DNA of 64,000 bases from a bacterium (lineage in GTDB: Bacteria > Chlamydiota > Chlamydiia > Chlamydiales > 2-12-FULL-49-11). Shown one piece after another: positions 2,880 through 44,470 of this stretch. The position numbers were made by a program, and so were the translations under genes. The notes below the pieces were generated by a model, which saw only the letters and a program-made list of their open reading frames with translations, did no database searches and had not been told where the DNA came from. The number at the start of each line of letters is the position of its first letter. The stretch's first letter is position 1. The DNA is taken from positions 12,177 through 76,176 of the forward strand of contig JAJZEO010000016.1 in NCBI GenBank assembly GCA_021847505.1, in the 5' to 3' direction.

Positions 2880-3785
2880 CTATTTTACTACAAAGCCTCT
2901 CTTGTACTTACTAATTTCTTTTTCCCAGTAGTTAATATATAATTTTTCATAATTATATTCCCTATCCTTAAATTCGTCCCATTTTTTTTCTAAATAACTC
3001 TCATCAATGATGTTCCAATCATCGACTATCAAAACAGGTAAGTCTTTAAATAAAGGATCCAGCGAGGAACTCTTTACGACTGGGACAGCCCCCATATACA
3101 ACGCCTCCCAGGTTCTATGAGTATCTATTCCATTTCCTCGTGGTGAAATCACAAACTTTGTTCTTGCCAAGTCGGTTAAATAGGAAAAAAAATCCTTAGA
3201 GCAAGAATAAACACCCCCATTTAACTGTCTGAATAAATTATACACATAAGACCGTTCGTCGGAATAAGTTCCAATGGAGAAATTCATATAAAGCAAATGT
3301 TCTTTGTTGCAATTCTGAAAAAGCGATCTTGCTTCTTTTAGCTTTTGAACATTTCCATGTGGCCAACATCTATTGGCTATTCCAATTGGAATACCTTTAA
3401 GCTTTGGATGGGTAAAGTTTGTTATGTTCTGTGCAAACCAAATTATCACATTGTCATTATCTAAATATCCCTTATATTTATCAGTCACTGGAAGATCTCC
3501 ATTATGTGTGATAAGAATGTAGGGCTGGTTAATTCTTGAATGATAAGAAGCAATAAAATCATCTAAAAGATCTATTTTTACAAAAATGATATCACCAAAT
3601 CTGACTTTAGTTGGCATTAGCGAACGACTTTCTTCATCAAAGACGAAATTTGCAAGCGCACGAAAAGAGTCTCCTGAAATATATGGGGCACTAGAACCTC
3701 TACCGCTCTCAGCATAAATATTTGCCAAAAAACAAACACTTATTATGAAAAAAAATATTTGTTGCTTCGAGCTTACTGATGCCAT
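2880..3785 (-). CDS. Exostosin (GT47)-like glycosyltransferase with signal peptide
   Basis: 301 aa. C-terminal 'KFVISPRGNGIDTHRTWEALYMGAVPVV' matches the exostosin-family motif (pRG..D..R..EAl..G.iPV). N-terminal hydrophobic segment IFFFIISVCFLANIYA. Confidence 0.55.
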   Translation of the reverse strand: MASVSSKQQIFFFIISVCFLANIYAESGRGSSAPYISGDSFRALANFVFDEESRSLMPTKVRFGDIIFVKIDLLDDFIASYHSRINQPYILITHNGDLPVTDKYKGYLDNDNVIIWFAQNITNFTHPKLKGIPIGIANRCWPHGNVQKLKEARSLFQNCNKEHLLYMNFSIGTYSDERSYVYNLFRQLNGGVYSCSKDFFSYLTDLARTKFVISPRGNGIDTHRTWEALYMGAVPVVKSSSLDPLFKDLPVLIVDDWNIIDESYLEKKWDEFKDREYNYEKLYINYWEKEISKYKRGFVVK

Positions 3786-32764: not shown

Positions 32765-33013
32765 ATGATCAAGACAATTGTGCACTCTCTCTTCGTTCTT
32801 TATACTCTGCTTCTCTTCGGGAGGATCGCTATTTCCTGGTTTCCCCAATTTCAAGGTTCCTCAGCTAATCGCTTTCTCATCCTCTATACTGAGCCTTACC
32901 TCGCTGTTTTTCGAAAAGTGATTCCCCCTATTGGAGGAATGCTAGACCTCTCTCCTCTTTTTGCCTTTTTTGCCCTACGCATCGCCGAATCACTGATCAT
33001 GAGATGCCTATGA
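32765..33013 (+). CDS. YggT-family membrane protein
   Basis: 82 aa with two hydrophobic helices. 'YTEPYLAVFRKVIPPIGGMLDLSPL' matches the YGGT motif. Confidence 0.75.
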   Translation: MIKTIVHSLFVLYTLLLFGRIAISWFPQFQGSSANRFLILYTEPYLAVFRKVIPPIGGMLDLSPLFAFFALRIAESLIMRCL

Positions 33014-33981
33014 ACTTCATCAAACCTCTCCAAATTGGCACTCTTAAATTAAAAAATAATATTGCTTTCTCCCCCCTTGCCGGTTGCACCGATCTCCCTT
33101 ACCGAAGAGTCGTTAACCTCTATCGACCAGCCCTGTTTTTCTGCGAAATGGTGAAGATGGATGCCTTGACCAGGCACGACAAAGGGACCTATCGCATCCT
33201 CAGTTACACACACGACATGCACCCCATCGGCGCTCAAATTGTCGGTAGCAAACCCAAATTAGCTAGAGAAGCTGCTAAGATCATTGAAGACCTCGGCTTT
33301 GACATCATCGACCTCAATTGCGGATGCCCCGTCGACAAAGTGACAAAAGATTGCGGAGGTTCAGGCCTCTTAAAACAGCCCAACTTGATTGGCGAAATTC
33401 TTTCTGAAATGCTTTCGGTCGTAAAAATCCCTGTTACATGCAAAATTCGGGTAGGTTGGGACGACCAAAATATCGTGGCTCCCCAGGTAACAAGGATTGC
33501 CGAAGAAGCCGGCGCAAAAGCAATTTTTGTCCATGGTCGAACCCGAGAGCAAGGCTATAAGGGATTGGCCAATAGACAACTTATTAAAGCTTGTGTTGAC
33601 GCAAGAAAAGTAATGCCCGTCTTTGGTAATGGCGACATTTTTGATACTGAGAGCGCCAAAGACATGTTTGTAACCACTGGCTGTGATGGGATTCTAATCT
33701 CAAGAGGCACCCTAGGAGCTCCTTGGATCGCCTCTCTCATAGAGGCAGAGTTGTCAGGGGGGAATTTTGCTCACCCGATCGATGATGACTTCATAAAAGA
33801 CCTGCTTGAAAAGCATTTTGCCTACTCAAAATCATTCAATGATGACCGAAAGACCCTGGTTGATATGCGTAAAGTCACTACGTGGAGCTACAAGACTCGG
33901 CCCCAAATCGCCGAATTCCGCGACCGGGTAAATGAAGCAAAAACCTTGGACCAACTGACTGCCCTCATCAACACCAGATAG
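33004..33981 (+). CDS. dusB: tRNA-dihydrouridine synthase
   Basis: 325 aa. Motifs 'SPLAGCTDLPYR', 'DLNCGCP' and 'IFVHGRTREQGYKG' are Dus-family signatures. Confidence 0.9.
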   Translation: MPMNFIKPLQIGTLKLKNNIAFSPLAGCTDLPYRRVVNLYRPALFFCEMVKMDALTRHDKGTYRILSYTHDMHPIGAQIVGSKPKLAREAAKIIEDLGFDIIDLNCGCPVDKVTKDCGGSGLLKQPNLIGEILSEMLSVVKIPVTCKIRVGWDDQNIVAPQVTRIAEEAGAKAIFVHGRTREQGYKGLANRQLIKACVDARKVMPVFGNGDIFDTESAKDMFVTTGCDGILISRGTLGAPWIASLIEAELSGGNFAHPIDDDFIKDLLEKHFAYSKSFNDDRKTLVDMRKVTTWSYKTRPQIAEFRDRVNEAKTLDQLTALINTR

Positions 33982-34006
33982 GAGCAAAGGCAAGGGCAGG
34001 GGCAAG
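33982..34006 (+). repeat. G-rich hexamer repeat copy 1 (25-mer gagcaaaggcaagggcaggggcaag)
   Basis: It occupies 25 of the 26 nt between the dusB stop (33981) and the stop of the convergent OMP gene (34008). Identical to 43771-43795. Confidence 0.9.
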
Positions 34007-34007
34007 T

Positions 34008-35144
34008 TTAATAGAGTGCTGTGAGGGAGATGGCGAAACCCTGTAACGTTACATTATTTGTGGGTCGCATGTAGCGCACTGTCGCATAAGGCTCTATTTC
34101 AAAGGCATTTGACCTGCTCGAAAAGAATTGCGCATCATAAGTAAAATCACAGGAAAGATGGGTTTTGTTTTTACAAATGTAATCGGCAACGCCTACGCCA
34201 ATTTTACAATCAATGGTAGGAGCTAAGTATTGCATTTTCTCAAAGAGATTGATGGCCGCATTCGAGTTGTTGTTTTGTGTTTCTGCATAGGAAGAACGGT
34301 TGGCAATGCACTCTAAGGAAATGTCTCCTGCCCCAAGGAAATAAAAGTTGTCGAAGATCAACCATTTCGTCACGACGCCTCCTAGAGGACCAATCCCCCA
34401 ATAGTCATTATTTTGGCGAACATTGACGAAATTATTCCCTAGTGTTGCCCCCCCTGTGTAAGAAGAGGATTGGTTGTTTTTGATCCAGGTATTTCGTAAT
34501 CCGAGAATCGCTTGTATCAATAGATTTTCGTGAAAGTGAAATTGCTTCGTGAGGCTAACGTCTAGTTCGTTGAGTGTAAAGGCTGCGGCTGAAATCGCAT
34601 TTGTTACACTCCTTCCATTTAAGGCGACGCTGCGCAATGGAATTAGGGTGCCGGCATCGTCACCAGCAACGCTTTGCGTTTGGTTGTCATTGAAATATTG
34701 ATAGGTGGCGCACACATTCCAATCATAATGATAGAATTGTGCTGCCCCGCCGACAGCAAAAGCCCACGTCCACTTTCGTGTGACCGATTCCCCCTGGCCA
34801 TTAAGAATGGGTGGTGAGACACCAGACCCATTTTTCGAGTAGGCAAAGGACTCTTCGCCACTACTTACCCTGTATAAGTGAAGCGAAAGGTAGCCCGTCC
34901 AAGGATAACATTCTGTATCCAACCAATGTATATCCGATCCCAGCGGCTCATAGAATCTCTCTTGATACCCTACTGTTTTCTCTTCCTGTAAAAGACCACC
35001 ATCATTTCCTGACAAAGGAAGAAGGGAGCAAAAAAGGGCGATGAAAACAACAACTGCGATCGCAACTACACCAGCCCACAAAGGGACCGCGCGTAACCGC
35101 AATAACCTTTTCATACCATCAACCTGTGGCAATAATAAAGGCAT
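34008..35144 (-). CDS. MOMP/porin-like outer-membrane beta-barrel protein
   Basis: 378 aa. Signal/anchor segment, alternating beta-strand pattern, C-terminal '...ISLTALY'. A paralogue is adjacent. The start may be Met11. Confidence 0.55.
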   Translation of the reverse strand: MPLLLPQVDGMKRLLRLRAVPLWAGVVAIAVVVFIALFCSLLPLSGNDGGLLQEEKTVGYQERFYEPLGSDIHWLDTECYPWTGYLSLHLYRVSSGEESFAYSKNGSGVSPPILNGQGESVTRKWTWAFAVGGAAQFYHYDWNVCATYQYFNDNQTQSVAGDDAGTLIPLRSVALNGRSVTNAISAAAFTLNELDVSLTKQFHFHENLLIQAILGLRNTWIKNNQSSSYTGGATLGNNFVNVRQNNDYWGIGPLGGVVTKWLIFDNFYFLGAGDISLECIANRSSYAETQNNNSNAAINLFEKMQYLAPTIDCKIGVGVADYICKNKTHLSCDFTYDAQFFSSRSNAFEIEPYATVRYMRPTNNVTLQGFAISLTALY

Positions 35145-40366: not shown

Positions 40367-40411
40367 GGGCAAGGGCATGGGTAAGGGCAGGGGCAAGGGC
40401 AGGGGCAAGGG
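40367..40411 (+). repeat. G-rich hexamer repeat copy 2, (GGGCAR)x7.5
   Basis: GGGCAA GGGCAT GGGTAA GGGCAG GGGCAA GGGCAG GGGCAA GGG. It ends 14 nt from the 3' end of the minus-strand tRNA-Pro. Confidence 0.9.
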
Positions 40412-42901: not shown

Positions 42902-43834
42902 ATGAAGTTGCAAGGAAGCATAGTTGCGCTAGTGACACCATTTACGGATGGTGGGGACGCTATCGATTATTCGGTTGCAAAGTCGCTCATTCAAATGCAG
43001 AAAGATGGGGGAACGGATGGGCTTGTGATTGGAGGGACGACAGGGGAAGGACCAACACTTTCTGATGACGAACTTGAATCCCTCGTAAACATGGCTATCG
43101 ACCTCTCAGATGATTCATTCAAGATCATTGCCACATGTGGTACCAATTGCACAAGAAAAAGCATTAAAAGGGCACAAATTGCCAAACAAGCAGGAGCCGA
43201 TGGATGTCTTGCTACGGTTCCTTATTACAACAAGCCATGCTTTAGAGGCCTTTTTAGTCATTTTTCTGCCCTTGCAGAAGTGGGACTTCCTGTTGTGATT
43301 TACCACCATCCTGGACGAACCGGTATATCATTAAACGCGGAAGAACTTGCAACGTTACATCAAATTGACGGAGTTGTAGCCATTAAAGATTGTGGGACAG
43401 ATCCAAGCTTAATCGCACGCATTTGCCGCATTATGCCCGAAGCTAGGATCTTGTCAGGAAATGACGACCTCACGCTCCCTGTGATCAAAGAGGGGGGAGT
43501 TGGGTGTATCTCTGTCATTGGCAATCTTATGCCAAGACAATGGAAAAAGATCCTTTCTTTGGCGCTAGAAGGAAAGCACGATGAGGCGCTTGACTGTTAC
43601 AAAGAGATAGAAGCGCTGATCACAGCGCTCAATCTCGAAGTTAACCCTCAGGGAATCAAATGCGCGATGACTCTCTCTGGCCTCATTGAAAACAAACTGC
43701 GCCTTCCCATGGTGCCTGTTTGCGAAGAAACCGAAAAGGCGATTGCGCTCGCCTTAAATGAATGGGGCAAGAGCAAAGGCAAGGGCAGGGGCAAGCGACT
43801 AGTCGGTGTGAACGCGTTTGAGTTCCTGAGATGA
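42902..43834 (+). CDS. dapA: 4-hydroxy-tetrahydrodipicolinate synthase with repeat-derived C-terminal extension
   Basis: 310 aa. Motifs 'GSIVALVTPF', 'GGTTGEGPTL', 'VPYYNKP' and 'VVAIKDCG' (Schiff-base Lys). The last ~22 aa ('GKSKGKGRGKRLVGVNAFEFLR') are encoded by the G-rich repeat and the antisense of the convergent gene. Confidence 0.93.
   Translation: MKLQGSIVALVTPFTDGGDAIDYSVAKSLIQMQKDGGTDGLVIGGTTGEGPTLSDDELESLVNMAIDLSDDSFKIIATCGTNCTRKSIKRAQIAKQAGADGCLATVPYYNKPCFRGLFSHFSALAEVGLPVVIYHHPGRTGISLNAEELATLHQIDGVVAIKDCGTDPSLIARICRIMPEARILSGNDDLTLPVIKEGGVGCISVIGNLMPRQWKKILSLALEGKHDEALDCYKEIEALITALNLEVNPQGIKCAMTLSGLIENKLRLPMVPVCEETEKAIALALNEWGKSKGKGRGKRLVGVNAFEFLR
43765..43795 (+). repeat. G-rich hexamer repeat copy 3 (contains the 25-mer identical to copy 1)
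   Basis: GGGCAA GAGCAA AGGCAA GGGCAG GGGCAA G. It lies inside the dapA 3' end and stops 3 nt before the stop codon of the convergent gene (43799). Confidence 0.9.
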
Positions 43835-44470
43835 TAGGGCTTGAGTGAAGGCAGGAGTCACGTCGTTTTCCTCAAAAGTGCGCGTAATTCGAGAGGCTTG
43901 GTAGTGGACAATGACTGCATCACCAGGCTCTTCCCGATCTTCTCTGGTGCGAACAATACGAATATATTTTTCTGGAAGACGCTTCATCTCAACGATGGTG
44001 GGATAGTGAAGAACGACCCTTCTTAGTGCCACTTGATCCAATACGGTGCCTTTGTAACTGGAGAGCATTCTTTCGCACTCTTTTTTCCAGAGAGTAAGAA
44101 GCTTTTTAGCAGAGGCAGTGTTGGCAACATAAAAAGTGCCAGAGAGAATCTTTGCTTCATGATTAGGTTCTACGTGGTCATTTACGTAAAAAGAACAGTC
44201 GGCATAACAGGTATCAAAAAAGTCGGGCTTCTTAACAATAACGCTATCAGCATCAGTCCAAATCAAAGGTGCTTTATGCTCTTCAAGTTTTTTCAATAAG
44301 AATTCAGGCTTGTAACAACAATTCTTGCTCCAAGACCCTCGATCTTCTATGGCACAGACATCGTGCTGAAGGCCAAATTTCTTTAATGAGGCAACTAGAT
44401 CCTGGGCCTCTTTTTCATAGAGGGTGTTTTTTGTGTAATAGCTGACAAAAATAGGTTTTTGATGAGTCAC
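43799..44470 (-). CDS. Cytoplasmic GT-A-like nucleotide-diphospho-sugar transferase (no signal peptide)
   Basis: 223 aa. 'IFVSYYTKN' and 'CCYKPEFLLKKLEEHKAPLIWTDADSVIV' (KP helix plus DxD). No N-terminal hydrophobic segment. Confidence 0.45.
   Translation of the reverse strand: MTHQKPIFVSYYTKNTLYEKEAQDLVASLKKFGLQHDVCAIEDRGSWSKNCCYKPEFLLKKLEEHKAPLIWTDADSVIVKKPDFFDTCYADCSFYVNDHVEPNHEAKILSGTFYVANTASAKKLLTLWKKECERMLSSYKGTVLDQVALRRVVLHYPTIVEMKRLPEKYIRIVRTREDREEPGDAVIVHYQASRITRTFEENDVTPAFTQALSSQELKRVHTD

Follow-up and report, generated by a model that had tools for sequence, protein, structure and literature searches.

A recurrent 25-mer at gene ends of an environmental chlamydia, probably a solo arm of a dispersed hexamer-array repeat family linked to PF05635 genes

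Why does one 25-nucleotide sequence, GAGCAAAGGCAAGGGCAGGGGCAAG, fill nearly the whole gap between two convergent genes of an environmental chlamydia, and why does it recur at the end of another gene nearby? The question arises in a 64,000-nucleotide stretch (the window) of contig JAJZEO010000016.1, our contig C28, in the metagenome-assembled genome (MAG) GCA_021847505.1 of the Chlamydiota (G000; 1.67 Mb, 43% G+C, 140 contigs, about 90% complete). Coordinates are window positions unless a contig is named. The original prediction offered two explanations, a function in terminating or insulating convergent transcription or the target preference of an inserting element. We find that the 25-mer is probably a single arm of a dispersed, copied family of GGGCAA/GGGCAG repeats, left behind as a remnant of selfish DNA.

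The arrangement is as first described. The tRNA-dihydrouridine synthase gene (dus) ends at 33981, the stop codon of the porin-like outer membrane protein gene (OMP) occupies 34008–34010, and 25 of the 26 nucleotides between them are the 25-mer. It recurs exactly (33982–34006 and 43771–43795, 9.8 kb apart), where dinucleotide shuffles expect 0.00 matches, and the second copy ends at 43795, 3 nt from the stop codon (43799–43801) of a minus-strand glycosyltransferase gene (GT). The sequence is itself repetitive. Tandem Repeats Finder (TRF), used for array calls in the window, reports a period-6 array at 33984–34006, and the 25-mer forms part of a degenerate hexamer array, (GGGCAR)n, of which the genome holds about 18. 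Ten genomic arrays, including both arms of an element on contig C70 described below, lie within two mismatches of the 25-mer and have in common the unit order GGGCAA-AGGCAA-GGGCAG-GGGCAA(G). Many of the arrays further agree in their flanks, which read GTTT(A/T)A.. on the outer side and a T-rich ..ATTTC on the inner. This shared unit order, together with the shared flanks, indicates copying from a master rather than independent slippage.

The array at the dus/OMP junction is an insertion relative to both congeners, because it is absent from the orthologous junction in each of the same-genus genomes used for comparison (G001 and G002 only), as the alignment of orthologous junctions proposed in the original prediction makes clear. 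In G002, whose flanking regions are about 73–79% identical to those of G000 at the nucleotide level, the alignment leaves a 44-nt gap, and dus and OMP have 18 nt in common (L001). In the more distant G001 the spacer is 6 nt long, TAG-ACGTTT-TTA (L002). Other arrays behave in the same way: G002 has clean gaps of 26 nt opposite the array on C128, of 73 nt opposite that on C58 and of about 120 nt opposite a doublet on C60, as well as at the mutY locus, and the array beside the tRNA-Pro gene is absent at the orthologous site in both G002 and G001. At dus/OMP the outer flank, GTTTAATAGAG, overlaps the OMP stop codon and the last OMP codons, and TTAATAGAG there doubles as the end of the OMP gene itself, which relatives conserve. 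Among metagenome contigs we found no variant alleles of this junction, and the exact 25-mer gave two unrelated matches that resemble Gly/Lys-rich coding sequence.

The family has larger forms. In the complete form that carries no gene, two arrays stand in inverted orientation, (YTGCCC)n, a spacer of 40–115 nt and (GGGCAR)n, and are predicted to fold into a long hairpin; the C60 doublet (52632–52792) folds at −77 and −101 kcal/mol, with z-scores of −6 and −11. On C70 two arms, each differing from the 25-mer at two positions only, enclose a 125-aa open reading frame (ORF; 3283–3660) for a four-helix-bundle protein (TIGR02436, PF05635, '23S rRNA-intervening sequence protein'). A PF05635 gene about 70% identical to it lies between the same arms in a member of the Parachlamydiales (G032, L088), with its start codon 9 nt after the 5′ arm, and a truncated remnant is found in G003. 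Inverted doublets are present in G000 (C60, C70), in G003 and at many loci of G032, which holds dozens of them; there the spacers are themselves imperfect palindromes, and the copies have the same gene-end habit. The two 25-mers are most likely solo arms of the (GGGCAR)n family.

The association extends well beyond this genome. In a search with one genome per species, an array joined to the outer flank was found at 18 loci against about 0.5 expected, at least nine of them in other Chlamydiota, and inverted pairs with a 40–85 nt spacer accounted for the majority of the chlamydial loci and for two outside the Chlamydiota. A 17-nt probe of three consecutive GGGCAR units was absent from both same-genus genomes and present in three of 31 relatives, all three of which carry a PF05635 gene or a remnant of one (Fisher P = 0.004, 31 relatives); the short flank pattern GGGCARGTTTW occurred in the relatives at chance level. 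We also started from the protein, fetching loci of C70-protein relatives from 60 places and examining 25 representatives for arrays. Inverted period-6 arrays flank the PF05635-family gene in most of these 25 loci, across many bacterial lineages: (GGGCAC)n in Planctomycetota, Lentisphaeria, Deltaproteobacteria and Nannocystaceae, and other hexamers in Sumerlaeia, Gemmatimonadales, Longimicrobiales and two chlamydial relatives.

Several further arrangements of arrays and PF05635 genes were seen. In other chlamydial genera (L168 in G025, L170 in G004, L171 in G008) the PF05635 genes are flanked by (GGGCAC)n or (GGTTAC)n arrays, which are partly translated as the C-terminal tail of the protein (VPVPVCVP, TVTGAVTVT). 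An IS5-like (DDE_Tnp_4) element that carries a PF05635 gene as a passenger is present in over 25 copies in the Chlamydiae MAG MFD01633.bin.3.44 (L107–L129); the order is PF05635 gene, (GGGCAR)4-6 array and a 26-bp end, GGAATTGAGGTTATGCAAGATGTCTA, so that gene and array lie just inside the ends, and one version (L114) has both ends and no transposase. In G003, pure (GGGCAA)n tracts of 80 to more than 110 bp stand at the ends of contigs C1, C6, C21 and C28 (L027–L030), where they break the assembly, and the one at L029, which lies within a frame open from the contig end onward, may be coding.

Where the arrays sit speaks to the idea of a recurrent placement at convergent gene ends. By a crude longest-ORF call, the intergenic DNA of the genome is 15% convergent, 32% divergent and 53% tandem; of the 12 intergenic array loci, five fall in convergent spacers (P = 0.024) and none in a divergent one (P = 0.010), and at three of the four tandem loci the array lies 2–4 nt after the upstream stop codon. 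Arrays are found, too, between tandem genes, behind a tRNA gene and within coding regions (dapA, mutY, a helicase gene). The recurrence noted at two junctions is therefore real and is a property of the whole family, not one restricted to convergent junctions. The idea of an inserting element with a target preference comes close to the evidence: a copied insertion, enriched at 3′ ends and never divergent, is what we see, and this pattern does not distinguish true target choice from positions that are merely tolerated. The cassette has no visible promoter, and landing behind a stop codon would allow it to ride on read-through transcription; a promoterless cassette dependent on read-through, together with selection against promoter-side insertions, could account for the placement. 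Its 18–48 bp stem would be of the kind cut by RNase III in related rRNA intervening sequences. Long palindromes are unstable, and loss of one arm would leave singlets; the solo arms may accordingly be half-elements that remained after the other arm of such a palindrome was lost.

At the second site the 25-mer has altered a protein. It does lie next to the GT stop codon at a convergent gene end, as the original prediction had it, but there is no clean spacer, for the dapA ORF (dihydrodipicolinate synthase, DHDPS) spans the repeat and overlaps the GT gene by 36 nt. G002 has TCGAGCAACGGCAATGAAACG in place of the array, a shorter and partly similar stretch (GAGCAACGGCAATGAAACG); its dapA stop codon overlaps the GT stop codon, and its DapA has 295 aa against 310 aa here. 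The net gain of 10 nt relative to the congener shifts the dapA frame, so that the tail ..KYRATAMKR* becomes ..EWGKSKGKGRGKRLVGVNAFEFLR*, giving the 310-aa form. The outer flank is GCGACTAG, and the GTTT(A/T).. start is missing there, unlike at dus/OMP. Among the arrays of the genome the GAGCAA unit is confined to these two sites, and G002 keeps GAGCAA-CGGCAA at dapA. Because the congener retains this decayed GAGCAA-CGGCAA and the unit occurs at these two sites alone, the dapA/GT copy is probably the older, and either it or a master common to both would be the source of the dus/OMP copy. Apart from changes to the ends of adjacent genes, such as the DapA tail, the solo arms most likely have no effect.

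Both copies belong to a cluster of five arrays within 22 kb of C28 (33982–56100), all G-rich on the plus strand (corrected Poisson P ~3e-4); the fifth is a weak, degenerate match at C28 67257 (about window position 55081), and the other four lie at 33982–56100. Identical pairs alternate in the cluster, 33982 and 43771 sharing the 25-mer and 40385 and 56074 a 27-mer. Since five arrays of the same orientation lie within 22 kb, local spread is favoured, and the dus/OMP copy may have arisen by local transposition or ectopic gene conversion.

Some observations weigh against the reading of the 25-mers as inserted solo arms. Opposite the arrays at dapA/GT, at C112:12054 and in the helicase gene, the congener carries a weakly similar stretch of much the same length (at C112:12054 a decayed array persists in G002). 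Some arrays may therefore be of old standing, or the product of conversion in place, and not insertions. Neither dus/OMP nor dapA/GT shows a doublet, a second arm or a PF05635/TIGR02436 ORF, and we put the chance that the two 25-mers are half-elements at about even. No mobilising enzyme was identified: PF01797 (the Y1 transposase associated with repetitive extragenic palindromic, or REP, sequences; RAYT) gave no match in G000, itself about 90% complete, or in G003, in searches that found their positive controls. RAYT/Y1 was dropped as a general mobiliser on the strength of its absence from G000 and G003; G032 has one weak partial Y1 match about 0.8 kb from a doublet. Lastly, the position statistics given above depend on the crude gene models.

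Could a solo arm nevertheless act on transcription? Minimum-free-energy folds bear out the remark that the 25-mer itself has no hairpin potential: on the plus strand the array forms four scattered weak pairs only (z −1.2), and on the minus strand at dapA it is without pairs (z +1.7). No intrinsic terminator features were seen, there being no stem in the array and no T-run at either site. The z-score of −2.9 on the minus strand at dus/OMP arises from pairing of the flanking gene tails, not from the repeat; between 33962 and 34030 the dus and OMP tails form an imperfect inverted repeat around the 25-mer (CCCTCATCAACACC.. / ..GGTGCTGTGAGGG), and in the congener one and the same 18-bp stretch supplies both tails, each from its own strand. 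From the sequence, then, a terminator or insulator role of solo arrays appears unsupported, because they have neither stem nor T-run, are not conserved between species and also occupy tandem, tRNA and coding positions. Unstructured, C-rich (YUGCCC)n RNA in the sense of OMP, GT and tRNA-Pro might still load Rho, or terminate or insulate in some other way, and the arrays would then be functional 3′-end elements. Consistent with this, 11 of 17 arrays have their C-rich strand 1–13 nt after a stop codon in the sense direction, the 25-mer counts 12 C and 4 G on its C-strand, and divergent spacers are avoided. A rut site, however, is usually cited as about 60–80 nt of C-rich, G-poor, unstructured RNA; the tract of the 25-mer is 25 nt long and those of the family 18–42 nt. 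The same junctions in congeners have no conserved array, either orientation fits one of the two genes at a convergent pair, copies also lie within ORFs (dapA, mutY, the helicase gene), and these arrays clearly form the arms of a cassette that looks mobile. We consider a functional 3′-end element unlikely; the C-rich strand does face the OMP and GT transcripts and may have a weak Rho-loading effect.

Ordinary microsatellites, grown in place by independent slippage of G-rich seeds, would account for a unit number that ranges from 3 to more than 19, for the very long pure (GGGCAA)n at G003 contig ends and for the weakly similar proto-sequences of the congener at three sites. We hold this to be very improbable. 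It appears largely refuted by the degenerate unit order, which is identical at many loci, and by shared non-repeat flanks (outer GTTTAAT, inner ..AATGATTTC); the inverted pairing with conserved palindromic spacers and the clean insertions of 26–120 nt, non-repeat flank included, also tell against it. The arrays contain overlapping GGGCAGGG octamers, which correspond to the Escherichia coli consensus of FtsK-orienting polar sequences (KOPS), GGGNAGGG, so that they could be strand-polar chromosomal signals, or G-quadruplexes tied to replication, with the cluster marking a replichore feature. The plus-strand bias of the five clustered arrays (P as above) fits, and GC skew changes sign nearby, around 38–40 kb. 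Yet of 17 arrays only 11 agree in orientation with the local GC skew, on a noisy contig profile in a fragmented assembly; doublets hold both orientations; copies are far too few for KOPS, and the arrays are absent from congeners. Searched for the canonical G-quadruplex motif (four runs of at least three G, 1–7 nt apart), the 25-mer falls short with two runs (GGG and GGGG), whereas the motif is present in the longer arrays at 40367 and 56067. We give such a chromosomal signal hardly any credence. Telomere-like addition and CRISPR-like repeats were dropped, as unit sequence and context do not fit.

How does the family compare with known repeats? In Coxiella burnetii the intervening sequence (IVS) of 23S rRNA forms a 28-bp stem that is cut by RNase III (PMC4990558). 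Such sequences, where they carry an S23p/PF05635 ORF (C. burnetii, PMC4990558; Leptospira), resemble the C70 form in having the same gene family in the loop of a long terminal-inverted-repeat stem, and both look selfish and are patchily distributed. Unlike the IVS, which sits in helix 25 or 45 of 23S rRNA, all copies here lie at protein or tRNA gene ends, their arms are tandem hexamer arrays instead of unique sequence, and ORF-less doublets and solo arms are scattered genome-wide. REP sequences of proteobacteria, with the bacterial interspersed mosaic elements (BIMEs) and the hairpin-forming REP doublets (REPINs), are likewise short and extragenic, lie at gene 3′ ends and never promoter-side, occur as singlets and hairpin doublets and are lineage-specific. 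A single array here, however, is microsatellite-like and not palindromic (no self-complementarity), no Y1/RAYT was found in the genome, and the associated gene encodes a four-helix-bundle protein, not a transposase. The family is therefore neither an IVS nor a REP/REPIN: it lies outside rRNA, it lacks palindromic units, and no RAYT was found alongside it. Like miniature inverted-repeat transposable elements (MITEs), Rickettsia palindromic elements and Correia elements, it consists of small non-autonomous repeats tolerated in ORFs, and with a period of 6 its arrays leave the frame of translation intact, as they do in the linker of the helicase and in the tail of MutY; unlike in MITEs, no DDE-type terminal inverted repeat with target duplication was seen in this genome. 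Literature searches returned no description of hexamer-array arms around PF05635 genes, and searches for the repeat sequence, alone or with Chlamydiae, returned primers and unrelated papers only. Taken alone, the 25-mer is ordinary inserted repeat DNA, and there is no evidence of a new kind of terminator.

The features at both sites and the remaining arrays of the window are listed in Table 1; an Rfam scan of the window gave tRNA-Pro as its sole match. The helicase-gene array encodes PLPLPLPLPLP, a linker between the helicase and nuclease domains. In that gene (55381–58491, minus strand, AddA/RecB-like) PLIHSLPT takes up an equal length in the congener where the array lies here; the array thus replaced sequence and did not add to it. 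A different repeat adjoins the mutY array on C112 (35900–36620), where a small GxxExxY / PDDEXK_3 gene has 37-bp terminal inverted repeats (TACCACCCGCTCTCTAC..) and is flanked by direct duplicates of about 55–60 bp, made up of the mutY 3′ end and a hexamer array. The repeat end, mutY tail and array of this locus recur at C60 21823–21960, and the 37-bp inverted repeat has solo or paired copies at C28:709–801 and on C49, C83, C84 and C108. A mention of GxxExxY in a reverse-transcriptase classification paper concerns a Cas4-like neighbour and was set aside as irrelevant.

Table 1. Coordinates of the hexamer arrays and adjoining genes in the window.
Feature	Position	Strand	Remarks
Probable solo (GGGCAR)n arm, 25-mer GAGCAAAGGCAAGGGCAGGGGCAAG	33982..34006	+	Units GAGCAA-AGGCAA-GGGCAG-GGGCAA-G
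dus, tRNA-dihydrouridine synthase gene (Dus)	33004..33981	+	PF01207, E 2e-73; left neighbour of the 25-mer
Legionella_OMP-type porin-like gene	34008..35144	-	PF05150; right neighbour of the 25-mer; stop 34008-34010
7.5-unit array	40367..40411	+	Outer end 13 nt beyond the 3′ end of minus-strand tRNA-Pro(GGG)
dapA (DHDPS)	42902..43834	+	C-terminus rewritten by the array: ...NEWGKSKGKGRGKRLVGVNAFEFLR*
Array, GGGCAA + identical 25-mer	43765..43795	+	TRF period 6; inside the dapA 3′ extension
Nucleotide-diphospho-sugar transferase (glycosyltransferase, GT) gene	43799..44470	-	Convergent with dapA
5.5-unit array	56067..56100	+	In frame within the minus-strand UvrD/PD-(D/E)XK helicase-nuclease gene

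A bolder proposal can be built on the association with PF05635. The hexamer arrays could be specific nucleic-acid recognition sites of the PF05635 protein, a four-helix-bundle protein that we take to be a relative of Avd, the accessory protein of diversity-generating retroelements (DGRs). Array and protein would then form a widespread and so far unrecognised self-propagating or self-processing cassette that lands behind stop codons, rides on read-through and leaves doublets and solo arms behind. We regard this as a speculative and rather unlikely extension of the copied-repeat reading. If it were true, it would provide a function for a large orphan family and account for how 23S rRNA intervening sequences with an ORF arose.

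The value of the finding lies in the link itself. In many bacterial lineages, inverted arrays of 6-nt units lie on either side of genes of the orphan PF05635/TIGR02436 family, which is known chiefly from intervening sequences in 23S rRNA. In environmental chlamydiae the arrays have spread to gene ends as ORF-less hairpins and solo arms, rewriting protein tails and a linker (DapA, MutY, the helicase). The link between array and PF05635 gene offers a concrete handle on how such cassettes move and on what the protein binds, for which the period-6 arrays would be the candidates.

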